A DNA stretch of 41,056 nt from a virus. Made by a program: the position numbers and the translations under genes. Below are positions 2,531 to 34,682 of this stretch, one piece after another. Numbering within the stretch: position 1 is the stretch's first letter; each line of letters begins with the position of its first letter. The stretch lies in UHGV virus genome UHGV-1383708. One strand, written 5' to 3'. The notes under the pieces were generated by a model. The model worked only from the letters and a program-made list of their open reading frames with translations, was not told the origin of the DNA and did not search any database.

Positions 2531-4831
2531 CTACTTCGTTAATATTTTAATCAAATCAATATTGCTTCCTTCTGATATTTCAGAAGGAACACTACCTGAT
2601 AACTTTATTGCATTAGATGAAATTCCTGAAACATCAGAAATCATATTTTTTGCCCCGCTAGTATATGCAACCTTAAAGTCATCATAAGGACCAGAATATG
2701 AAATTTCATCCTGGTTACGCACATATATAGTATTCCCGGACACCGATTTAACAACGTATCTATTTCTTAATATATTAACCTTAACATCAGATGCATCTTT
2801 TACATAACAGGTAACACCTGATGCTATATTTTCCATTTTGACATCAAGTGATGAATTAAACATCACAGCACCAGACCTGTGGATATTATGATCATCCATA
2901 TTTCTTCGAGGATACGCAGAACTATCCTTATAATATCTTCCGGTAAATCTGATATATTTGAAGGTAATTCCAGATGTATTACCACCCGACAGAATGACAA
3001 CCCTTATTGATTTTACTCCTCCTTTGTCGGTTATCCTAAACTTTGCATTACCGATGTTAGACTGGGTAGTAAAACGACTGTTTTCATCATCCCATGAAGC
3101 CCCTGGAAAACCAATCCCTTCAGGCTCATTTGTAATAACACTGCCATTCTCATCAATTCCATAAACCCTTATGCGGAATGCGCTGACATCAGAAGTAAAT
3201 GCAAACACATCGCCATTCCTGACGCTTATATCACCTGATTCCCAAATTGTCCTGAAGTTACGTCCAATAGCAAAACTACCATTAACAAGATGAATTAAAT
3301 TTCGCACACTTTTTACATCTGTAACATAATCAGGTGTATCTGAACTTCCCATATTAACGCTTGATAAAAATGGCGTTTTCTCACTCACTGAAAAAAGCGA
3401 CACTTCATTAGTTAGTTCTTCCTGAATATGATATACAGCATTTCCATTACCATTATCAGTGACAGTTACAAGATTGTTTGGGTTATATGGTTCATTGGTA
3501 TATGCAGAAAAGCTAAGCCATGATGCCTGAACAGAATTATTCCACGTATAACTACCAAAATTAATTCTTTGTGTGTCATCTGGGTTGTCTGGTCTGCGCT
3601 CAAAACGGAGTCCGTAAAAATGATTATTATTACCACGCTGAATGTCAATAACCCCAGTATTCTCCATCGTTCCACCAAAAAACTTGTTGTGATTATGTGA
3701 ATACGGATTATCAGCAATAATCACATTATTTGTCCTGTTTAGGTAAAACTTGTTTTCGTTTATCCAACCTCTAACTACACCAAGAAAATGAATTGTATCG
3801 ACCTTTTTCAGGTTAAAGGTTGAGTAGGCTATAGAATAATCTGTTTCATATACTGAATCATCAGAGTTTGCATATAACTGTAAGTAGTCGCAACGCTCAA
3901 TGTTAATATGCTGCCCTTTTGCCCCGATAATACGAATATCCGGTGTCGTTTCAGATGAAATACCAGAATTTCTGATAATCGTTCCGAAGTTTTGTCTTGG
4001 GTTGTTAGGGTTTGATGCATTCCCGCCAAGCAATACCCCTATCCCTGAGTGGGATATGGTAAAAACAGCATTGGTCATTTCGAGGCTGACATTACGAAGA
4101 TTTAATGTCTCCGTAATAATAAAATTACCTTCCGCTCGTAATGTTCTGGATGATTCTCGTGCATATTCTGCAGCCAGAATCAATGCAGATGTATCATCTG
4201 TTATACCATCGCCTTTTGCCCCAAAATCGCGAACACTAACGGTGTCTCTCATCTTATCCTGGAACGTTCGGTATACTGCTCCAGAACCATACTGAATAAA
4301 CCAACCAAAACCACCAATAACTCCGGCGATTGCAGCATCGACATAATTACGCATTGAGCGATTATTTACAGCGTCCTGCTCAAGTGATGGATCGGCAAGG
4401 TTAGATATTCTGTTTTGCTTTGCATCGTAATATTTTGCAAGCAAAGATGGTTTCATCAATGCACGTCTGAACCACCCAAAACATCGCTGGATCAGCATCG
4501 TCAGGTAGTCAAATGCATCCTCATGAACTTCGGGGAAAAATTTTCCCTGATTGCGAAGATCAGTCTCCTGCACCACATCAAGCACACGCTCTATCGTGAT
4601 TCGCCAGCCAGCAGCAAGCGGCGACGGAAGAACCACTGCACCGCCACTATAAGTTCCCGCCCCTGTTACCGTATAACCAGCATCCAGCACTAGTTTTGTA
4701 ACGTTACCGTTAAGGTCAGACACCTGAACAACCAGGTCGGATTTTTTGAAAATACGGAAGGTATACGGAAATGATGTCGTAACGCCGTTACCTGTGTATT
4801 CGTTGTGGTCAACTTCGGTTGAGACCGTCAT
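2531..4831 (-). CDS. Tailspike / receptor-binding protein
   Basis: 766 aa; N-terminus MTVSTEVDHNEYTGNGVTTSFPYTFRIFKKSDLVVQV recalled as conserved particle-binding domain; AT-rich Asn/Ser/Gly-rich C-terminal part; GGAGA RBS. Confidence 0.8.
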   Translation of the reverse strand: MTVSTEVDHNEYTGNGVTTSFPYTFRIFKKSDLVVQVSDLNGNVTKLVLDAGYTVTGAGTYSGGAVVLPSPLAAGWRITIERVLDVVQETDLRNQGKFFPEVHEDAFDYLTMLIQRCFGWFRRALMKPSLLAKYYDAKQNRISNLADPSLEQDAVNNRSMRNYVDAAIAGVIGGFGWFIQYGSGAVYRTFQDKMRDTVSVRDFGAKGDGITDDTSALILAAEYARESSRTLRAEGNFIITETLNLRNVSLEMTNAVFTISHSGIGVLLGGNASNPNNPRQNFGTIIRNSGISSETTPDIRIIGAKGQHINIERCDYLQLYANSDDSVYETDYSIAYSTFNLKKVDTIHFLGVVRGWINENKFYLNRTNNVIIADNPYSHNHNKFFGGTMENTGVIDIQRGNNNHFYGLRFERRPDNPDDTQRINFGSYTWNNSVQASWLSFSAYTNEPYNPNNLVTVTDNGNGNAVYHIQEELTNEVSLFSVSEKTPFLSSVNMGSSDTPDYVTDVKSVRNLIHLVNGSFAIGRNFRTIWESGDISVRNGDVFAFTSDVSAFRIRVYGIDENGSVITNEPEGIGFPGASWDDENSRFTTQSNIGNAKFRITDKGGVKSIRVVILSGGNTSGITFKYIRFTGRYYKDSSAYPRRNMDDHNIHRSGAVMFNSSLDVKMENIASGVTCYVKDASDVKVNILRNRYVVKSVSGNTIYVRNQDEISYSGPYDDFKVAYTSGAKNMISDVSGISSNAIKLSGSVPSEISEGSNIDLIKILTK

Positions 4832-5331: not shown

Positions 5332-5425
5332 ATTTACATTGCACTCCTCTTGTGCCATAGTAATCGGGCACTGGCAAAATCCAGTGCCGGGATTGGTCTC
5401 CCGGATTACTACAGAGGCACATATG

Positions 5426-5445
5426 CCGCATAAGCGGTTTTTTTA
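5426..5445 (+). terminator. Intrinsic terminator downstream of small LexA-box gene
   Basis: CCGC-ataa-GCGG hairpin followed by TTTTTTT. Confidence 0.5.
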
Positions 5446-5598
5446 TGTGTAAAGCGCACCTATTCTATGGTGGGCTGTGTGGGGGCACCGAAAGGTGCGC
5501 CGGGTTCCTTTGTAGCCGGTAAGACCAACTCTGCACAGTTCACCACCATCTGATTGGTCTCAGCGGTGGTGATTAACCTAACTACAAAGGTGATCGCT

Positions 5599-7307: not shown

Positions 7308-7469
7308 ATGAAAAAAGCATTTGCTGCACTGTTCGTTTTGTTGTCTCTGGTAGCTTCAACTCAGGCCTTTGCCGGTCGTTGTCAGCACGACAGCGATACT
7401 GCCGCTGACGGCTCCCGCTGCGGTGGGCGTTCTGCGGATTCCCGCCCTGGCGGCGGTGGCATTCGTTAA
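7308..7469 (+). CDS. Candidate secreted micro-protein (53 aa) with signal peptide
   Basis: MKKAFAALFVLLSLVASTQAFA then Gly/Arg/Asp-rich 31-aa tail with two Cys; no clear RBS. Confidence 0.35.
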   Translation: MKKAFAALFVLLSLVASTQAFAGRCQHDSDTAADGSRCGGRSADSRPGGGGIR

Positions 7470-7475
7470 AAACAA

Positions 7476-7519
7476 GGCCGCGAAAGCGGCCTGTGACATG
7501 TCACGCTAGTTTCGTTTTG
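7476..7519. terminator. Bidirectional intrinsic terminator between convergent units
   Basis: GGCCGC-GAAA-GCGGCC hairpin with T-rich tracts on both sides. Confidence 0.55.
7493..7504. repeat. Perfect 12-bp palindrome GTGACATGTCAC (copy 1)
   Basis: Exact; immediately beside hairpin GGCCGC-gaaa-GCGGCC. Confidence 0.8.
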
Positions 7520-7542: not shown

Positions 7543-8481
7543 TCAGAAGAACCCTGCCTTGTCGTTGATGTATTCCGCGTGCGTCTGGATATCACGCAGG
7601 CATTTGCTCACACCGACGATGTAGCAGAACATGGTGGTCAGCTCCGCCGCCGCGCCCGATACATCGTGCCCGTCTTCCTGTAACTGGTTCAGCAGATTCA
7701 TCAGCAGTGAGTTCTCCGTCAGGCCGAGAACACCAGACGGCGAATGAATCAGGCTACGGTAGCCGGGCTTCAGTGGATAACCATAACATTTTGTCTGTGT
7801 TTTAATTGCCTCACGAAGCGCATCTAACATCTTGACTGCCACTTCATCATTCTCTGATGCAGATCCAGCAGGGAGATACTCCCCTTCAAGCGGAACCCGA
7901 GCAACAAGAGACAACGCTTCGGCAAATTGATCTTCACCAATTTCTTTGTACGAACAGCCAAAATGAGATTTCAGTGACGACCACATGGTGATCATCGCCT
8001 TAGCCTGTTTTTCTTTTGGCAGAGACTGACCGCGACTCATGACGAGTTGTTTAATGGCTTCCTGCTGTTCAGTTGTTATTTTACCCGGCAACGCCTTTTT
8101 AGCTTTGCGTGGGTTAACCACATGGCCTTTAGTCCAGTACTCGTAGAGCACATCGTCACACTCTTCCTGATACTGGATTACCTTGTCGCGGATTTCAGGG
8201 CGGACTTTGTTAGGGCTGATGCTGTTCAACCAAGCTGCCAATTTTCGTAAAGCCATACAAATCATGGCTTGCACCCCACCGGCAGAAGGTATGGTGATTT
8301 CCACCATACCCTTCGAGAAGCGTTGAGAAATCTTCTTATGTTGAGATTTCCAGTCTAGCCCCATTCCCTCAACGATAGGTTTCATTGGGGTATACGGTTC
8401 GCCGTTGTGATTGACAACATAAAGCTCTGCGCCGTGGAATGGCACGTTGATAGTAGATACTGCTGTTGCTATACTCGTCAT
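7543..8481 (-). CDS. Antirepressor (Ant-type N-terminal region plus shared C-terminal domain)
   Basis: 312 aa; downstream of arc-like gene as in P22 immI; last 77 aa near-identical to C-terminus of gene 5599-6291. Confidence 0.7.
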   Translation of the reverse strand: MTSIATAVSTINVPFHGAELYVVNHNGEPYTPMKPIVEGMGLDWKSQHKKISQRFSKGMVEITIPSAGGVQAMICMALRKLAAWLNSISPNKVRPEIRDKVIQYQEECDDVLYEYWTKGHVVNPRKAKKALPGKITTEQQEAIKQLVMSRGQSLPKEKQAKAMITMWSSLKSHFGCSYKEIGEDQFAEALSLVARVPLEGEYLPAGSASENDEVAVKMLDALREAIKTQTKCYGYPLKPGYRSLIHSPSGVLGLTENSLLMNLLNQLQEDGHDVSGAAAELTTMFCYIVGVSKCLRDIQTHAEYINDKAGFF

Positions 8482-8553
8482 GTCGTTAATTCCTATACGT
8501 AGTTTTACGATACTGAAGCCCTGACGGTCTGGCCACCGTGGGGCTTCGCTGTT
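8482..8553 (+). ncRNA. Candidate sar-like antisense RNA covering the antirepressor translation start
   Basis: Plus-strand TTGATA-N17-TATACT promoter at 8447-8475 inside ant 5' end; hairpin GAAGCCC...GGGCTTC plus T-tract at 8515-8556. Confidence 0.4.
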
Positions 8554-25282: not shown

Positions 25283-25359
25283 TGTGGCATTAGCTCAGTT
25301 GGACAGAGCAACCGCCTTCTAAGCGGTTGGTCGCAGGTTCGAATCCTGCATGCCACGCC
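25283..25359 (+). tRNA. tRNA-Arg (anticodon UCU), argU-like
   Basis: 77 nt; 7-bp acceptor stem GTGGCAT/ATGCCAC; anticodon stem ACCGC/GCGGT with loop CTTCTAA; T-loop TTCGAAT; encoded 3' CCA. Confidence 0.85.
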
Positions 25360-25563: not shown

Positions 25564-25935
25564 ATGAGTGACAAAGACATTGAATCTGAAATTCAGGCTA
25601 AAGGTTTAGCCGCGCCGCGCGTTACGCCAGACCATATCGAGAGCATTATTGCTCAGGAGGCATATTTCACAGCAGAAGATGGTGTCTTTGGCGTAGCCAT
25701 AAAAGCGAAACATACTGGCGGAGAGGTAAACTACCAGCCGCACGAATCACTTTCTCTGCTGACGTTCTGCGTTCTGGTGCTGCGCAACGGCTTCACCGTC
25801 ACCGGAGAGAGCGCCTGTGCAAGCCCGGAAAACTTTGATGCGGAAATTGGTCGGAAGATTGCCCGGCAGAATGCTGTAAACAAAATCTGGATGCTTGAAG
25901 GTTACTTGCTGAAGCAGAAGTTAAGCGAGCAATAA
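25564..25935 (+). CDS. Hypothetical protein (123 aa), opposite-strand insert in the late region
   Basis: AAGGTGAG RBS; flanked by terminators on both sides; opposite to surrounding late genes. Confidence 0.55.
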   Translation: MSDKDIESEIQAKGLAAPRVTPDHIESIIAQEAYFTAEDGVFGVAIKAKHTGGEVNYQPHESLSLLTFCVLVLRNGFTVTGESACASPENFDAEIGRKIARQNAVNKIWMLEGYLLKQKLSEQ

Positions 25936-25939
25936 CACC

Positions 25940-25951
25940 GTGACATGTCAC
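25940..25951. repeat. Perfect 12-bp palindrome GTGACATGTCAC (copy 2)
   Basis: Exact; 4 nt upstream of terminator hairpin. Confidence 0.8.
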
Positions 25952-25955
25952 AAAC

Positions 25956-25982
25956 AGCCAGCCGATGAGCTGGCTTTGTTTT
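25956..25982 (+). terminator. Intrinsic terminator after gene 25564-25935
   Basis: AGCCAGC-cgatga-GCTGGCT hairpin then TTGTTTT. Confidence 0.6.
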
Positions 25983-26025: not shown

Positions 26026-27501
26026 TTAAGCATAGGGATCGTAATCTGTAATGGCCTTGCCTTGCTGGTTCTGCTGCCCGGGAATTCGCAGACGCTTAGA
26101 CACAGGGAACGCAAACGTCAGCAGTAGCGCATCGCCTTTACCCGGCGAACGCCCAAGCCGCTCCTTGATATCTTCCTTCGGTTCGATAACGATTTTACCG
26201 TCCACTCGAACTTTGTACTCTGCCGCCGACAGGTCGTCTGCTGTTTCCTGGTCATCCAGCATCCCGCCCAGCCTCAGCCATGTCTTGCATGAGTTGAACA
26301 TCTCCCCACGCTTGTTGAGCATCTGCGGGTCAGTAGACGCGCCACCGAACGGAACAAGTTGCCATGTACGACCCCAGCCGTCACCGATTGACTTCAGACC
26401 AGTTCCGTAACCGAAGTCGATGAACACTGCGTCAGCCTGGTACTGGTCTTCAAAGTCAGCGATACGCTTCGCCATTATCAGATCGTCAGTGGTCTTGTTG
26501 CCAGTCCACAGCACCTTACTGTGCAGCCCCTGCCGCAGGTATATCACAGCGTCATCAACTCCGGAGTATGCCGGGTCAACGCCGATTATCACCGGAGCAT
26601 GTGCAACCTGCGCAGCGGTTACCACCCGTTTCATTGCCTCATCAGTAAGACCGGTAGGGATAAACTGCAATTCAGATGCATCAGGGAATATGCCGCGCAC
26701 ACGGATTTTAACGAAGTCGCTGTCTTCCCCGTAGTCATCAACCCATTTCTGCAACTGCTGTTTGTTAGTACCTTCCACCGTCCGGCTGTCAATCTGCGCA
26801 GTTTTCCAGCGGTGTTTGTATTTGCGGAAACATTCGCGAAAACGCCCGGTATTACGTGTAGGGTTTCCGAACGCCACCCAGATAATCTCAGTGTCTTCGT
26901 CCGTAAGCGCACCCTCAGCAACTTCCCACACCAGATCCGCAATGTTCGACGCTTCATCGAATACCACGATGATGCGTTTGCGCTCGTTGTGTAGTCCGGC
27001 GAATGCCTCAGTGTTGTGCTCAGACCAGGGGATTGCGTCAGCTCGCCACCGCTTGTCGTGCCCAGGATCATTGCTGTACATCGCAGTAGCGGTACAGGTA
27101 AACCAGTCTTTCGTGATAGCAAGGTTCGACCACTTGATAATTTCCGGCCAGGTCTTCGTTCGTAGCTGGTTGTCGGTGTTGGCGGTCACCACGACCTTAC
27201 AATCCTCGCAAGTGGACATGCCCCAGTTGATCAGCATTGAGATGAATGCGGATTTACCAATACCGTGACCAGAAGCGCGTGCCAGCATAAGCGGCTGATA
27301 GCGCGTCTCTGGATTCTGCAGGTGATCACGTATCTCTCGGAACGCATCAGCCTGCCACTGACGTGGGCCGGTAGCATGTGCCAGTTCAGTCCCCTCTTCC
27401 CCCCACGGGAACGCATAGAGGGCATAGCCAAGCGGATCGTGAGTGAACCCTGCAATATCCTCGATCAACTGCTCTTCAGGAGATAACGCTGTATCTGTCA
27501 C
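26026..27501 (-). CDS. Terminase large subunit
   Basis: 491 aa; ATPase region then nuclease region (VIIGVDPAYSG...); follows terS. Confidence 0.85.
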   Translation of the reverse strand: MTDTALSPEEQLIEDIAGFTHDPLGYALYAFPWGEEGTELAHATGPRQWQADAFREIRDHLQNPETRYQPLMLARASGHGIGKSAFISMLINWGMSTCEDCKVVVTANTDNQLRTKTWPEIIKWSNLAITKDWFTCTATAMYSNDPGHDKRWRADAIPWSEHNTEAFAGLHNERKRIIVVFDEASNIADLVWEVAEGALTDEDTEIIWVAFGNPTRNTGRFRECFRKYKHRWKTAQIDSRTVEGTNKQQLQKWVDDYGEDSDFVKIRVRGIFPDASELQFIPTGLTDEAMKRVVTAAQVAHAPVIIGVDPAYSGVDDAVIYLRQGLHSKVLWTGNKTTDDLIMAKRIADFEDQYQADAVFIDFGYGTGLKSIGDGWGRTWQLVPFGGASTDPQMLNKRGEMFNSCKTWLRLGGMLDDQETADDLSAAEYKVRVDGKIVIEPKEDIKERLGRSPGKGDALLLTFAFPVSKRLRIPGQQNQQGKAITDYDPYA

Positions 27502-28094
27502 TGATTACCATCCTGACGTTCTTTGAGTCGCTTCCTGGCTGCCGCTATGCGATCAGCAATTGTCACATTCACATTAACATCCAGGCGTTCTTTGAATGCA
27601 TTGACGTCGACGTGCTTACCAATCAGTTCGAGGTTCTTCACCTTGTCAGGCCATTTAATTTTTTTGAGAATTGTCTCTATCGAATCCTCGTTCATGTTCA
27701 TGATGGTCGATGACAGATCAAAGCCACTAAGCGTAGTGCGCCAGATTTTCGGCCACTCGCGGATTGGCTTAAGGCTCCCATCGTCATTGAGGATATCAAT
27801 CACGTCCATCTGGTCGATCTCCACCAGGCGCATGAGAACGTAATCGGCACTGACGCGCATTCGTTTGTTGCGCTCCTCCATCAACTCGGCAATCCGTTTT
27901 TGAATGCGTTCATCGCGCATCATGACACTGGCTTTAACTGCCGCTGTATTTGGGGAGAATCCTGCGTTAATCGCTGCCTGAGTCTGGTTTTCAGGCGTTT
28001 TGATGTATGACTGGCAATAAGCCTCCTGCATTGCGGTTAGTGGCTTAAATTGCGTTGATTTGCGTTTATAGGTTTTAGGTTCAGCAGGCATCAT
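27498..28094 (-). CDS. Terminase small subunit
   Basis: MQEAYCQSYIKTPENQTQAAINAGFSPNTAAVKASVMMRDERIQKRIAEL typical of Terminase_2-type small subunits; overlaps terL start. Confidence 0.75.
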   Translation of the reverse strand: MMPAEPKTYKRKSTQFKPLTAMQEAYCQSYIKTPENQTQAAINAGFSPNTAAVKASVMMRDERIQKRIAELMEERNKRMRVSADYVLMRLVEIDQMDVIDILNDDGSLKPIREWPKIWRTTLSGFDLSSTIMNMNEDSIETILKKIKWPDKVKNLELIGKHVDVNAFKERLDVNVNVTIADRIAAARKRLKERQDGNQ

Positions 28095-28134
28095 AACCAC
28101 CGTGGTAATAGTTACCGTTGTGGTAATAGTACCA

Positions 28135-28163
28135 TGCAAAATAAAGCCGCCATAGTTGGCGGC
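28135..28163 (-). terminator. Intrinsic terminator upstream of terminase small subunit gene
   Basis: GCCGCC-N6-GGCGGC hairpin followed by UUUAUUUU on minus strand. Confidence 0.55.
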
Positions 28164-28204
28164 AGTATTCAAAACCCATCAAATTCATCATGCATAATCT
28201 ACTC

Positions 28205-28216
28205 GTGACATGTCAC
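28205..28216. repeat. Perfect 12-bp palindrome GTGACATGTCAC (copy 3)
   Basis: Exact; overlaps stop of gene 28213-28560; ~42 nt from minus-strand terminator. Confidence 0.8.
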
Positions 28217-28560
28217 ACTATTAATTTCGTTTCATGCCAGCCTTTAGTCACCCAGCATTGCGAGTCACCATTACACGGGCATGAATTAACGGGAACTCTC
28301 TCGCCGCACTTACCGCAAAGTTTTCTGCTGATCGATTTTATACGCCCGCGCACACGTGCATCATCCTGGCGGATCAGCAGCGCGATGTACTCGGCCATTT
28401 CATAGGGATCGCGACCAGGGCGCCGGGCGGCGCAGTTCCGCGCCAGCATTTCCTGCTCCTGCTTATCCAGCACCAGTTCAATTTTGCGCTCACCGGCGGC
28501 GGACTGCCGAGCGCGCTGCGCGGCTTTGCGTTCTGCGGGGGATTTAGCCACGAATCGCAC
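28213..28560 (-). CDS. Hypothetical basic protein with C-terminal Cys cluster (Zn-ribbon-like)
   Basis: 115 aa; CGKCGERVPVNSCPCNGDSQCW; last gene before the terminase operon. Confidence 0.5.
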   Translation of the reverse strand: MRFVAKSPAERKAAQRARQSAAGERKIELVLDKQEQEMLARNCAARRPGRDPYEMAEYIALLIRQDDARVRGRIKSISRKLCGKCGERVPVNSCPCNGDSQCWVTKGWHETKLIV

Positions 28561-28666
28561 TCCACGCCAGATTGATTAATGACTCCCAGGTAATATAAAC
28601 CCGGATACCAGCAACCAGGCCGAAACCAATCACCATGGCATAAAGCAGAGCGTTGCACTTGTTCAT
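28544..28666 (-). CDS. Small hydrophobic peptide (40 aa), single TM
   Basis: AGGAGGTGA RBS; MNKCNALLYAMVIGFGLVAGIRVYITWESLINLAWSAIRG; overlaps both neighbours. Confidence 0.35.
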   Translation of the reverse strand: MNKCNALLYAMVIGFGLVAGIRVYITWESLINLAWSAIRG

Positions 28667-29595
28667 CACTTCACCTCCTGCGGCGGTTCTGGTAGCGGCA
28701 TCCAGTGGGTTACTTTCGATGCCGGTTCTTCCCCATCGTCAGTAACTGCCCACCATTTGTTTCTCGACCAATCGTAATACCCTTCGAAGGTATCGCACTC
28801 AGTCCAGCCGTAAGACTTACCCCAACACCAAACATACTGTTTATCGTTCGGCATTCGCTCACTACAGCTTATCCAACCATCCGGAGTTGCCGGAGTTGGT
28901 CCATCGAATTCGGGCATGTCAGGACCTTTTCTGATAGCTTTAGCCAGCTCCAGCGGGTCATCGTAAAGCCAGTCGCCAGTTTGTGGGTGATTTGCTTCTG
29001 CAAGCTGCGCAGCCCATTCAAGACCATCTTTTTGACCTTGGAGATAATCAAGCGGCAACTCTTCATGATTACTTGCAGGTTCGGCACTATGAAGCATGGC
29101 AGCGTGGCAGGCATCCTCTACGCCTTTAACTGCATCTGCGCAGTAGTTATAGCGATTGCATTCCACTAACTTCTGCTTGAGATTTTCAATTGCTTGCGCG
29201 ACATCATCCTGTATTTCCGGAACTGGCGGAACGGCTGTCTGCTGCTCTCGAACGTCATTAGTCGCTATCGGTTCTGCTGCCAACTGACTGGCATATTTGT
29301 TAATGGTAACGATAAGCTCTTGCTCGGCCTCATCCAGACAATCACCGATACCTCGCCTGTCACCGTCAAAATCATCGAAATCGGCACGAATCTTGGCAAC
29401 CTCCCGGATTGCGGACAACACTTCACCAGGAATAAGCCGAGAGTTGCCAGATAGTGCATTCTGCTCCAGCGATGCCAGAGCAATTCGTGCCAGTTCTTCC
29501 GCTTCTTCTGCTGGCAGTACAACGTTGCTACCAGGTCCGTATGTTTCGCGCCACTGCTGGATTGTCAGCAGGCGTTCTTTGGTAATAGTGATCAT
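28666..29595 (-). CDS. DUF551-domain protein with Ead-like N-terminal region
   Basis: C-terminus WISCSERMP...KVTHWMPLPEPP characteristic of DUF551. Confidence 0.6.
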   Translation of the reverse strand: MITITKERLLTIQQWRETYGPGSNVVLPAEEAEELARIALASLEQNALSGNSRLIPGEVLSAIREVAKIRADFDDFDGDRRGIGDCLDEAEQELIVTINKYASQLAAEPIATNDVREQQTAVPPVPEIQDDVAQAIENLKQKLVECNRYNYCADAVKGVEDACHAAMLHSAEPASNHEELPLDYLQGQKDGLEWAAQLAEANHPQTGDWLYDDPLELAKAIRKGPDMPEFDGPTPATPDGWISCSERMPNDKQYVWCWGKSYGWTECDTFEGYYDWSRNKWWAVTDDGEEPASKVTHWMPLPEPPQEVK

Positions 29596-32718: not shown

Positions 32719-33519
32719 TTACTTGATAAATCCTGCCGCCTTTCCCCGCCTGTATTCCTCCATCAGCCACTGCGCCGGTGTTATTCCCCCCAGGGTGGCG
32801 GCGTTAGGCATACACCCGAAACTTCGCCCTGGTGGATGGTAAACGTCTCTCCCTGTGTCCGGAGGCGTACTCATGGGCTCTGGCTTTGCCTGTATGCTGA
32901 TCACCGGATCGGGTATCTGCTGTCCGGAAGCCACCTTTTTCGCCCAATCATCGAGCAGCCTGCGCGCGTGTTTCTCAACCTCAATCTCGCTAAGCTGGCG
33001 CTGATACATTGCACGGCGGGTATCACATACGACCCAGTACATAACCGGATGTCGCCACGGGAATCTTTCGGGACCACCAGGATATAAACTTTTTTCCTTG
33101 CTGTACCGGTGAAACTCCGCCATCACATCGTCAATGGTGACGCCAAGAACCATCTTGCTGTCTTTACACCACTTGATGAATTGCCCTGGCGACGGCCAGA
33201 ACGGGGACTCACTGGCGCGGGCGTGGCGCATACCAGCAGAAACCTGTTCACGGGTTCGGATCCCCCCTTCGGCAAACGCAGCAATCCACTGCTGTTTTGC
33301 AGCAACTTCCTGCTCTGGCGTCTTCAGGTTGGTTACCACTGCCGCCGGAAACAGTTGTTTCAGCTGTTTAAAAAGGGCATCAACAAGCCTCTCTGCTGAC
33401 ATGTTCACCACATTGTCATTGTTGACGTACTGATGCTCATAACCTGACATGCGAGAAAGGGCTTCTCCGTCACGGTTTTGTATCGCGGTAAAAACGTTGT
33501 TCACAAGAAATCCTCCCAT
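32719..33519 (-). CDS. Replication protein P-like helicase loader
   Basis: EQVSAGMRHARASESPFWPSPGQFIKWCK aligns with lambda P NGITTMEQVNAGMRVARRQNRPFLPSPGQFVAWCRE. Confidence 0.8.
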   Translation of the reverse strand: MGGFLVNNVFTAIQNRDGEALSRMSGYEHQYVNNDNVVNMSAERLVDALFKQLKQLFPAAVVTNLKTPEQEVAAKQQWIAAFAEGGIRTREQVSAGMRHARASESPFWPSPGQFIKWCKDSKMVLGVTIDDVMAEFHRYSKEKSLYPGGPERFPWRHPVMYWVVCDTRRAMYQRQLSEIEVEKHARRLLDDWAKKVASGQQIPDPVISIQAKPEPMSTPPDTGRDVYHPPGRSFGCMPNAATLGGITPAQWLMEEYRRGKAAGFIK

Positions 33520-34316
33520 GCTTCAGGGCTGTTCCAGTGCGGAACGTTGTTATCAGGTAATGTTGATTGCTTCTGTCTGCTAATCTGCAGCCGCCTTGCC
33601 AGCTTCTGCTCCCACTGTGCCTGATGGTATGCCTTACCCTCAGCCATCCAGTAAATTCTGAACTCTGCAAGTTCCTGTGCCGTTGGCAGACTGTCCAGGT
33701 AGATCCCCTGCAATGAGCTTTTCCGAAGAAAGTCATCTGATGGCTGCCATTGTTCATGCATGACAAATTTGCCTAATTGCCCTGGCCCACCAGGAGGAAC
33801 AAAGTTATTCATCACGGCGTTGTTTGCTCCGGGGTCATGAGGCACAGAATCCCCGCTTTTTGTCCTGCTCTCCCTCTCTTGGTTAAATGACTGGTTATAT
33901 GACTGGTTCTGGATCCCGTTTTTGGGATCATTCAACATCCCGTTTTTGGGATCATTCAACATCCCGTTTTTGGGTATATTCCCGTTTTCGGTAACATTAC
34001 CGTTTTCGGGTTCATTGCCCCCCTCCCGGTTGCCTTTAATGTTCCCGTTTTTGGTTATATTAAGAGAGAAAACCCGCACTCTTTTTGTCGCTCCCTTTCT
34101 CTCTCCGGTATCTGAAATAAGCCCCATTTTCATGAGCGATATAAGCCCGGCCTGCACGGTTTTTTTATTCAGGCAAGTGTCTTTAACGAGGCGTTCTATG
34201 CTGGGGTAGCAGAGGTTATATTCATCGGCTCTGTCAGCCATCGAGAGCAGTATGAGCTTTAATGATGAGCTACCTGGATCTGTCTCCCAGGCCCAATCTG
34301 TTGCATGTCTGCTCAT
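33501..34316 (-). CDS. Replication initiator, lambda O-like, with internal iteron-encoded peptide repeats
   Basis: 271 aa; N-terminal HTH-like region; repeated PKNGMLND peptides encoded by DNA iterons; directly upstream of P-like gene. Confidence 0.7.
   Translation of the reverse strand: MSRHATDWAWETDPGSSSLKLILLSMADRADEYNLCYPSIERLVKDTCLNKKTVQAGLISLMKMGLISDTGERKGATKRVRVFSLNITKNGNIKGNREGGNEPENGNVTENGNIPKNGMLNDPKNGMLNDPKNGIQNQSYNQSFNQERESRTKSGDSVPHDPGANNAVMNNFVPPGGPGQLGKFVMHEQWQPSDDFLRKSSLQGIYLDSLPTAQELAEFRIYWMAEGKAYHQAQWEQKLARRLQISRQKQSTLPDNNVPHWNSPEAWEDFL
33911..34060. repeat. Iteron array (candidate origin) inside O-like gene
   Basis: About six copies of CCCGTTTT(T/C)GG at 18-24 bp spacing, including two exact 24-bp tandem units. 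Confidence 0.7.
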
Positions 34317-34331
34317 GATTAATCTCCGCTA

Positions 34332-34532
34332 TCAGCTTGAATGTTGTGGGGAGGAATTAATCATGATCTGCTTAATCTCTGCCCTGATACGACGGTTTGA
34401 TTCCATGGTGCACTCAACACAGTGTCCGTTGTAAACCCAGCGTTCACTGTCATGTCCGTGCTTACATGTTTTTCCGGTGTAGTAGCGTTTAAGTCCGCGC
34501 TTTGCGGCATCAATACGTGTAATGATTTCCAT
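34332..34532 (-). CDS. Small Zn-binding protein (66 aa) in cII-like position
   Basis: C-x-H-x-H ... H-C-x2-C cluster; between cro-like and O-like genes. Confidence 0.45.
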   Translation of the reverse strand: MEIITRIDAAKRGLKRYYTGKTCKHGHDSERWVYNGHCVECTMESNRRIRAEIKQIMINSSPQHSS

Positions 34533-34682
34533 GGTAAGCCCTGTTATTAGTATTGGGATTACGGTCATTTTGTGCTGACACAAAAAAAATATCAACCATA
34601 TTTGGTTTTTTATTACCTTTGAGGTACGAATAGATATGAAAAGACCGCCGGGTGGCGGTCTACAGAGGGTTGTAGCTGGATA

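Follow-up and report, generated by a model that had tools for sequence, protein, structure and literature searches.

UHGV-1383708 is a virus genome of 41,056 nucleotides (nt), referred to here as the window. This study concerns a pair of overlapping genes on its minus strand, which encode a 40-amino acid (aa) hydrophobic peptide and a 112-aa basic protein with a cysteine cluster, together with a 12-bp palindrome that lies on the stop codon of the second gene. The window is an E. coli prophage of the epsilon15/phiV10/TL-2011b type (genus Uetakevirus). EC.W1-9, TL-2011b, phiv142-3 and phiV10 show 96–99% alignment to the pair region and to most of the 41-kb stretch, 161 of 5426 complete E. coli genomes carry at least 80% of positions 28100–28700, and related prophages are also present in Salmonella and Klebsiella. 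The minus strand is the coding strand for most genes in the part of the stretch examined, and the order along it is replication genes, ea22/DUF551-type accessory genes, the pair, an intrinsic terminator, terS, terL and the structural genes. The first-pass annotation had put the pair just upstream of the terminase operon, and this position holds, the 112-aa gene being directly 5′ of terS and terL.

Features at the pair and at the boundary with the late operon. ORF, open reading frame; RBS, ribosome-binding site; RHH, ribbon-helix-helix.
28666–29595, minus: 309-aa gene upstream of the pair with a C-terminal DUF551 domain (PF04448, E 2.4e-17), labelled ea22 protein in phage EC.W1-9
28672–28678, minus: RBS of the peptide gene, GGAGGTG, 5 nt ahead of its ATG (from the sequence)
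28544–28666, minus: gene of the 40-aa hydrophobic peptide, TAA stop included (phrog_5525 profile match)
28560–28563, minus: RBS of the 112-aa gene, GGAG, 8 nt ahead of GTG 28551 and within the end of the peptide ORF (from the sequence)
28213–28551, minus: gene of the 112-aa basic protein (phrog_536; predicted RHH domain with a four-cysteine module), start GTG 28551, stop TGA 28213–28215 (profile match, starts of relatives)
28205–28216, both strands: palindrome copy 3, GTGACATGTCAC, containing the TGA stop of the 112-aa gene; proposed operator (exact repeat, conserved at the stops of homologues)
28138–28163, minus: intrinsic terminator, GCCGCCAACTATGGCGGC plus TTTATTTT, at the boundary of the early operon and terS (about −17 kcal/mol for the folded 55-nt stretch)
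27498–28091, minus: terS, small terminase subunit, first gene of the late operon, start ATG 28091 (Terminase_2, E 1.4e-29), followed by terL

The cysteine-rich frame can be read from GTG 28560 as a protein of 115 aa, the length assigned to it in the first-pass annotation. All relatives are 112 aa long and start with ATG at the position matching GTG 28551 (ATGGCTAAATC vs GTGGCTAAATC). Thus the true gene is 28213–28551; the earlier description of a basic protein with a C-terminal CxxC...CxC...C cluster stands (CGKC...CPC...C in the sequence), and its length has to be corrected. The GTG in place of ATG is a peculiarity of this prophage among those compared. The gene overlaps the stop of the peptide gene by 8 nt (GTGGCTAA), and an equal overlap is found in TL-2011b, phiV10 and 65FD in spite of unrelated upstream genes (DUF2591 in TL-2011b, ASCH in phiV10). 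The start context (A/G)TGGCTAAATC at 28549–28563 is kept in these three phages and in a Klebsiella phage. The gene is the last of the early operon and ends about 120 nt before terS.

The 112-aa protein has a pI of 9.6, with 23 Lys and Arg against 14 Asp and Glu residues, and its C-terminal cysteines are at positions 79, 82, 91, 93 and 99. It matches phrog_536 ('transcriptional regulator') with E 1.2e-53, residues 5–114 of the 115-aa ORF being aligned to profile positions 3–114 of 115. Its equivalents are gp49 of epsilon15, gp55 of phiV10 and gp46 of N15. RefSeq records also label the protein 'transcriptional regulator', and PGAP annotation of E. coli genomes calls it hypothetical. A total of 728 relatives were obtained at E≤1e-3, with a typical length of 112 aa, and the family is small (145 clusters at 50% identity among 1.84 billion representatives). 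In an alignment of 50 full-length members (A2), R7, C78 and C81 are invariant and R12, P86, G94 and C98 are at least 90% conserved; the 112-aa protein has all of them, and the third cysteine of the family is at a variable position. The two family motifs, a basic N-terminal R-K-x2-Q-R-x-R and CxxCGxxLPxxCxGxxxGDxxCW, are both present in the protein. No significant match to it was found in Pfam, NCBIfam, PADLOC or PDB sequence searches. Related phages and RefSeq E. coli genomes carry annotations for both genes of the pair, and on these comparative grounds each is a real gene and not a chance ORF. In comparison with phiv142-3, a recombination breakpoint falls in the middle of the 112-aa gene: the 5′ half encoding the RHH part is much diverged and the 3′ half, with the Cys module, the palindrome and the DNA downstream, is near-identical.

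An AlphaFold2 monomer model was built from the 50-member alignment and has a mean pLDDT of 94. It consists of a helix (4–17), an extended segment (18–28), a helix (29–41), a long helix (51–73), a Cys knuckle and a last helix (99–106), and it passes the β-strand, helix, helix fold test for RHH proteins (CopG/Arc/MetJ). The 112-aa protein is thus predicted to be an RHH DNA-binding protein with a basic N-terminal helix and a C-terminal four-cysteine (Cys4) module, which would bind zinc. RHH proteins are obligate dimers that insert a two-stranded ribbon into the major groove of a symmetric or pseudosymmetric site, and the conserved palindrome beside the gene lends indirect support to such a binding mode here. 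Sequence profiles give little sign of the fold: the Pfam RHH models do not match the 112-aa protein at E≤1, and weak matches were seen in only one or two of the 50 family members (RHH_5, 0.013; RepB-RCR_reg, 0.028; RHH_1, 0.071). Foldseek against the PDB matched the RHH part alone (E 1.3), and the search of BFVD returned only a fragment from the protein's own family. The combination of RHH and Cys4 therefore appears to be absent from solved structures. A profile search of PDB sequences showed a weak resemblance of the second helix and the Cys module to TraR and YbiI (E 0.04–0.05; hhalign probability 75%).

The palindrome at the stop codon has the consensus GTGAC-NN-GTCAC. Its association with the gene was assessed in 27 genomes, one per GTDB species, chosen by protein similarity alone with a 10-sequence alignment as the query. 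In 20 of the 27 the stop of the homologue has an exact copy at −6 to +10 nt; a further locus has it at +11, and two have a copy with one mismatch at the same place. About 4e-4 loci with a stop-adjacent site would be expected by chance. The motif is on or beside the stop in epsilon15-like phages of E. coli, Klebsiella and Salmonella, 2 nt past the TAA stop of the homologue of Pectobacterium myovirus ZF40 (67% identity), at the stop in a P2-like Yersinia phage (45%; GTGACGCGTCAC) and in the telomere phage phiKO2 (39%; GTGACTGGTCAC), and also at the stop of N15 gp46. Eleven extra lineages were picked on protein similarity only (30–43% identity). The motif lies over the stop in four of them and over the start codon in two, and one has it three times just past a Bro-N gene 2.1 kb downstream. 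In the sequence examined it was undetected in four. Counting 18 independent phage or contig lineages together (31–100% identity), 10 have the site at the stop, 2 have it at the start codon and 2 have it in another part of the locus; in the remaining 4 it was undetected. An exact 14-mer scan of IMG/VR served as a source of loci only, and about half of the matches listed were in unrelated contexts and may be due to chance.

The position of the motif relative to the reading frame and its internal pattern bear on what it is. In Xenorhabdus it is 5 nt past the stop, and in ZF40 and other loci it is likewise outside the ORF, so that coding constraint does not account for its conservation. Between fixed half-sites only the central dinucleotide varies (AT, GC, TG, AC, CT, AG, GT), a pattern that fits a DNA site recognised by a protein and not an RNA stem. 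A role at the RNA level is unlikely also from the folding, the best hairpin being 5 bp with a 4-nt loop (−2.9 kcal/mol); it is the sequence of the half-sites and not pairing that is conserved, and no Rfam match was found. The DNA past the palindrome is unrelated between lineages and consists of a terminator and terS, a LexA-box promoter and a umuD-like gene, another RBS, or small hairpins. Since the motif stays at the gene when the downstream DNA is unrelated, gene and site travel as a cassette in which the palindrome is more strictly conserved than the protein. These observations point to the palindrome as the operator of the 112-aa protein, and we consider this probable.

The alternative is that the palindrome belongs to a host factor or another phage protein, or is a 3′-end structure, and is linked to the gene only passively, the protein then regulating another target. 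Binding by the 112-aa protein is deduced from sequence, no covariation is visible between DNA-facing residues of the protein and whether a site is present or of which type, no site was detected in four lineages that have the gene, and all hosts are Gammaproteobacteria, so that a shared host factor is conceivable. Passive linkage leaves unexplained an exact 10-base motif beside coding sequences down to 31% protein identity with unrelated DNA downstream, as well as the two lineages in which it falls on the gene's start codon. There is no copy in lambda, which is without a homologue, and no paper with the motif in a phage context was found in the literature searched. To our knowledge the motif resembles the site of no E. 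coli factor, which counts against a host protein. A site for something other than the 112-aa protein is for these reasons distinctly improbable.

Two local arrangements near the motif are recorded separately. In L143, one of the four lineages in which the motif was undetected, the homologue is followed instead by a long-range inverted repeat at 1323–1375 (GCGTGACCGG, 28 nt, CCGGTCACGC), which holds the GTGAC and GTCAC half-sites far apart. In ten loci from Klebsiella, Citrobacter and related prophages, a TTGACT-type −35 and a perfect LexA box (TACTGT-N8-ACAGTA) lie within a few nt past the palindrome, with a palindrome-to-TTGACT gap of 5–6 nt in the Klebsiella-type loci. These elements drive an inserted accessory gene, umuD-like or other, which separates the regulator gene from terS.

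The first-pass annotation had noted a palindrome copy 3 beside the gene; the window does hold exactly three exact copies (7493, 25940, 28205), against about 0.04 expected per 40-kb genome. The third contains the TGA stop described above.

Remaining copies of the palindrome in the window, with the RNAs encoded near them.
7493–7504, both strands: copy 1, directly past the 312-aa ORF 7543–8481 (minus) and abutting a terminator at 7468–7492 (minus)
25940–25951, both strands: copy 2, on the plus strand between the stop of a 123-aa ORF (25564–25935, plus) and a terminator at 25956–25982, and on the minus strand just past the terL stop
5368–5444, plus: isrK RNA (Rfam, 74.7 bits)
5463–5550, plus: C4 antisense RNA (Rfam, 78.6 bits)
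8483–8550, plus: sar RNA (Rfam, 44.8 bits)
25284–25357, plus: tRNA (Rfam, 73.3 bits)

Copies in other phages.
Salmonella phage 65FD: three exact copies in the same three places as in the window, the terL-side copy with the centre CT
TL-2011b: two exact copies, past gp20 and past ant, and one degenerate copy between gp23 and gp24
ZF40: three exact copies, in gp08, in the cII-like gp12 and past gp22
N15: three exact copies (28550, 33237, 39269), of which one is on the gp46 stop, one upstream of the anti-repressor (immA) operon and one in repA
Vibrio phage K253: three exact copies, one of them 20 nt before terS
P2-like Yersinia phage: one exact copy, on the gp13 stop, and one imperfect copy
Lambda (no homologue): no copies

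At all six sites of this prophage and 65FD the order is stop codon, palindrome, intrinsic terminator. The gap between palindrome and terminator is 0–4 nt at copies 1 and 2; at copy 3, where the terminator is conserved in 65FD, it is 41 nt in this prophage and 22 nt in 65FD. The palindrome is kept while the terminator stems differ between the two phages, as at copy 2, where the 65FD equivalent GTGACCTGTCAC stands beside a terminator of other sequence. Across the 27 genomes a canonical terminator lies within 60 nt of about one third of the gene-adjacent sites, compared with 5% of random positions. The tRNA and the 123-aa plus-strand ORF end at copy 2. The 312-aa ORF at copy 1 is taken to be the anti-repressor gene ant by its correspondence with TL-2011b, and copy 1 is the meeting point of a P22-like minus-strand unit (sar RNA, ant) and a P1/N15-like plus-strand unit (isrK, C4 RNA and downstream ORFs). 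From the Rfam matches to isrK, C4 and sar, the prophage appears to carry anti-repressor control units of both the P22 type (sar/ant) and the P1/N15 type (C4). Sites adjacent to anti-repressor genes are seen in three lineages: past ant in the epsilon15-like phages, upstream of the immA operon in N15, and past the Bro-N gene mentioned above. In N15 the anti-repressor-side site is about 25 nt upstream of a promoter-like element and a terminator preceding genes 32–30, and the gp46-stop site is just ahead of the gp47 RBS.

A small number of fixed sites might also serve as cis-elements in a DNA transaction other than transcription, such as recombination at module boundaries, an aid to packaging or replication, or phage-plasmid partition. 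The carriers differ widely in replication, packaging and maintenance, and include integrating podoviruses, P2-like phages, cos and pac phages and telomere phages. There is no conserved partner enzyme adjoining the 112-aa gene, and the positions of the sites relative to ori, pac and terS are not conserved. Such a function is accordingly regarded as distinctly unlikely.

The junction at copy 3 is the one through which the late operon would be reached. A terminator past the gene had been proposed in the first-pass annotation, and a strong one was found at 28138–28163. E. coli and Salmonella phages have no conserved sequence between palindrome and terminator, and the distance from the terminator to terS is only 47 nt. 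A promoter-pattern scan and cross-phage comparison revealed no conserved promoter between the palindrome and terS. The sole promoter-like match is weak (9/12) and consists of the palindrome half GTGACA as −35, 18 nt and CATGAT, in a segment not conserved between the E. coli and Salmonella phages. The interval between the terminator and terS contains two direct repeats.

28102–28112 and 28120–28130, minus: direct repeats ACTATTACCAC, between the terminator and the terS start (from the sequence)

Related repeats occur in 65FD and in a locus whose homologue is 53% identical, and they could be a terS leader, pac-related or a regulatory element. In phiV10 terS is annotated as a longer ORF that spans the repeats and the terminator, probably in error.

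Proteins resembling Q, N or Ogr were looked for in the TL-2011b annotation and by scanning ten early-region ORFs of this prophage with Pfam, and none was found. With the late operon on the same strand behind a strong terminator, a gap of 47 nt, an unconserved spacer and no such protein detected, something must allow read-through. The 112-aa gene ends the early operon and has a suitably placed site, which makes it a candidate for the early-to-late controller. The reading we favour is that the 112-aa protein controls transcription across the palindrome-terminator junctions of this prophage, to which we assign a rough probability of 0.45. According to this proposal, the RHH domain would dimerise and the dimer would bind GTGAC-NN-GTCAC, one operator being carried with the gene on its own stop and about two more elsewhere in the phage genome. 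The bound protein would decide the fate of RNA polymerase (RNAP) at the operon junctions, namely at 28205 before terS, at 25940 after terL and the plus-strand ORF, and at 7493 after ant. At 28205–28216 it would control whether transcription of the early operon continues past the terminator at 28138–28163 into terS, terL and the late genes. The peptide would be translated from the early transcript that also encodes the protein, with translational coupling to both neighbouring genes, and would be located in the inner membrane.

The sign of the effect is a separate question. We lean slightly towards a positive, antitermination-like role, with a negative one close behind, on account of the lack of a recognisable late activator and of conserved room for a promoter between the terminator and terS; even so, that the protein promotes read-through is in itself doubtful. 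That it acts as a roadblock is about as doubtful, or slightly less so. A more specific version of the positive role would be an elongation regulator loaded at its site, which waits on palindromes upstream of terminators, engages RNAP through the TraR-like zinc module and allows read-through. This would be the early-to-late switch of epsilon15/phiV10-like phages, and the same cassette would act at other junctions (anti-repressor operons) in N15-like, P2-like, ZF40-like and Vibrio phages. We regard this version as speculative and quite unlikely.

Alternatively, the protein could be a negative regulator, that is, a roadblock, insulator or autorepressor. A dimer on the three sites would block or slow RNAP, limit its own synthesis and delimit the early, late and opposite-strand accessory units, much as at LacI O3. 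The characterised RHH proteins are mostly repressors or accessory factors of DNA processing, and we know of no RHH protein that acts as an antiterminator. A block at 28205 would oppose the expression of terS and all late genes, which lie downstream on the same strand; no alternative promoter for them is recognisable, and no conserved one lies between the palindrome and terS. A roadblock also seems redundant, since a strong intrinsic terminator is already there. Negative regulation is a serious alternative, if on balance an unlikely one.

Several further observations weigh against junction control by the 112-aa protein, in addition to the known functions of RHH proteins. The resemblance to TraR can be kept as a lead only, as the Cys spacing differs and the Pfam and fold searches disagree. 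The fraction of gene-adjacent sites followed by a terminator within 60 nt is only about one third. Some of the sites in ZF40, N15 and K253 lie inside genes or directly before the next RBS with no terminator near, and relative to late transcription copy 2 is reversed, the hairpin preceding the palindrome. The lack of covariation between protein and site and the four lineages with an undetected site count here as well. The homologue coexists with the Q-like gp40 in N15, gp38 in phiKO2 and gp25 in ZF40. In the P2-like Yersinia phage it is gp13, after gpA, and a separate regulator, gp51, occupies the ogr position after gpD. In all four of these phages gene and site are away from the late promoter. 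A 1-nt deletion in an A-run (AGAAAAC to AGAAAC, equivalent to about 28327) shifts the frame just ahead of the Cys cluster in the sewage isolate EC.W1-9 (about 4200–4230) and in one IMG/VR contig; this is either a viable natural truncation, in which the Cys module would be dispensable for growth, or a homopolymer sequencing error. The literature searched contained no experimental paper on the family, on the motif or on late control in epsilon15. The paper on vB_EcoP_ZX5 covers repressor, anti-repressor and integrase only (PMC9782041), and a 2023 paper on small protein modules and polylysogeny concerns different modules (PMC10432266).

Taken together, coexistence with Q-like or Ogr-position regulators means that the 112-aa family is not a universal or single late switch. 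The proposal in the first-pass annotation that the protein occupies the place of a late-gene regulator survives in part. A DNA-binding fold is predicted, the palindrome is at the stop, the gene is the last of the early operon and no rival Q, N or Ogr was found. What does not survive is the notion of a dedicated late regulator, given the homologues that stand beside other regulators, the sites off late promoters and the frameshift in EC.W1-9.

The first gene of the pair encodes the peptide MNKCNALLYAMVIGFGLVAGIRVYITWESLINLAWSAIRG, with a grand average of hydropathicity (GRAVY) of 0.93 and a hydrophobic core at about residues 5–26. The DUF551 gene ends in ...AAG TGA, and the ATG of the peptide (28666–28664) shares one A with this TGA (TGATG); at the other end its TAA stop (28544–28546) falls within the 8-nt overlap with the 112-aa gene. 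The coordinates thus bear out what had been claimed of it at first, a single-span peptide of 40 aa with a strong RBS that overlaps both the upstream stop and the downstream start. An AGGAGG-type RBS also precedes the diverged homologues. The peptide matches phrog_5525, a profile of unknown function, over all positions 1–40 of 40 (E 3.3e-29), and has no match in the Pfam, NCBIfam and PADLOC libraries. Its family, sampled in a collection of 5.8 billion proteins, comprises 28 clusters at 90% identity from E. coli, Klebsiella aerogenes and Citrobacter. Those relatives that have no N- or C-terminal extensions are 39–41 aa long; K3, L7, G14, I25, I31, N32 and W35 are invariant and the other changes are conservative. 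An equal-length relative with 45–50% identity is found in the P1-like phage SJ46. The pN/pS of 0.58 comes from only seven distinct sequences, too small a sample to decide. The peptide gene is directly 5′ of the RHH/Cys gene in 10 of 11 loci, the exception being SJ46, and diverged peptides (61% identity) again directly precede diverged 112-aa genes (62–70% identity). The majority of the homologues of the 112-aa gene lack the peptide upstream, and its slot is filled by the unrelated DUF2591 or ASCH gene in TL-2011b and phiV10; the slot is therefore exchangeable. The peptide is predicted to be an optional small membrane protein of the early operon, conserved yet replaceable.

It had also been suggested that the peptide could be a toxin or a modulator of lysis or exclusion. 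In a toxin-antitoxin-like or a lysis or exclusion module, the peptide would be the effector and the 112-aa protein its antidote or regulator. The tight translational coupling, the hydrophobic single-pass peptide, the constancy of the pair in 10 of 11 loci including diverged ones, and the frequency of RHH domains among antitoxins would agree with this. Against it, most homologues of the 112-aa gene follow DUF2591, ASCH or other ORFs, with unrelated neighbours in distant lineages, the relative of the peptide in SJ46 stands alone, and the library searches, PADLOC among them, gave nothing for it. No Rfam RNA, antisense RNAs included, was detected in the pair region. No lysis gene adjoins the peptide; the holin, endolysin and spanin genes were placed about 26 kb away by alignment with TL-2011b, and the peptide gene is in the early operon and is not part of the lysis cassette. 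A module of this kind is very improbable.

Other genes of the window referred to in this study.
33501–34316, minus: DnaT/HTH_36 replication gene
32719–33519, minus: lambda P-like replication gene
about 186–1992, minus: lysis cassette of holin, endolysin and spanin genes (alignment with TL-2011b and its annotation)

In the early-left region, a 99-aa ORF at 38424–38723 (plus) matches the PerC transcriptional activator family (PF06069, E 6e-7). Between the cro-like and replication genes, a small ORF at 34332–34595 (minus) encodes the Cys/His-rich RYYTGKTCKHGHDSERWVYNGHCVEC, which suggests another small zinc-binding early protein.

The family of the 112-aa protein has been catalogued in PHROG and RefSeq by name only. 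What appears to be new is the fusion of RHH and Cys4, a putative operator that is conserved within the stop codon of its own gene in very different phages, and a regulon of some three sites. Epsilon15/phiV10-like prophages are common, and we found no description of how their late genes are activated; the locus offers a testable hypothesis, in which a single 112-aa protein would act through a 12-bp site that is present about three times per genome, once at the early-to-late junction. The cassette is unusual as a portable regulatory unit, in that the putative operator has been kept in its own stop codon through mosaic recombination across podoviruses, myoviruses, siphoviruses and phage-plasmids. 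If the protein is an ordinary repressor, the results would still give a binding site and a small regulon to a widespread family labelled 'hypothetical' or 'transcriptional regulator'.

Comparison with known systems shows partial likeness to several. The peptide resembles small hydrophobic peptides such as Hok, TisB, holin modulators and exclusion peptides in its 40 aa, single span, basic N-terminus and strong RBS, but it matches no named family in sequence, only phrog_5525. An HNH endonuclease beside the terminase, as in HK97 gp74, was considered for the 112-aa protein and rejected, as there is no HNH motif, only one His is present and the HNH matches in BFVD have E>1. From the RHH regulators of temperate phages and plasmids (P22 Arc, Mnt, CopG, AmrZ, TraM, omega/ParG) the protein differs in its added C-terminal four-Cys module. 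The putative operator is on the gene's own stop codon and not at a promoter, and the other sites are at 3′ ends or terminators and not at identifiable promoters. With the C4 zinc-finger proteins of the DksA/TraR group (TraR, lambda Orf73, YbiI) it shares a long helix followed by CxxCGxx(I/L)P...G...C, and on both sides these are small proteins of phage or plasmid early regions. Membership in that family was rejected: PF01258 is absent among the Pfam families of the 50 members, the CxxC-N17-CxxC spacing differs, the N-terminus is basic and there is no structural match. Membership in the Ogr/Delta family was likewise rejected, with no match to Pfam Ogr_Delta.

The lambdoid Q proteins (lambda Q, 82 Q, 21 Q, P22 gp23) offer a parallel in layout, in that a DNA site, a terminator and then the late genes come after the last early gene. 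The 112-aa protein is a predicted DNA-binding protein with a cysteine cluster, and a zinc finger is present in lambda Q. Membership in the Q family was rejected, the protein being unlike Q in sequence and fold and only about half as large. At the site, a promoter with a sigma-dependent pause element was not identified, and several sites per genome lie away from late promoters. The O3 operator of LacI is situated at the 3′ end of lacI. The protein families are unrelated and layout is the sole resemblance. In both cases the operator, putative here, overlaps the coding end of its own regulator, and binding could truncate the regulator's own transcript and affect the downstream unit.

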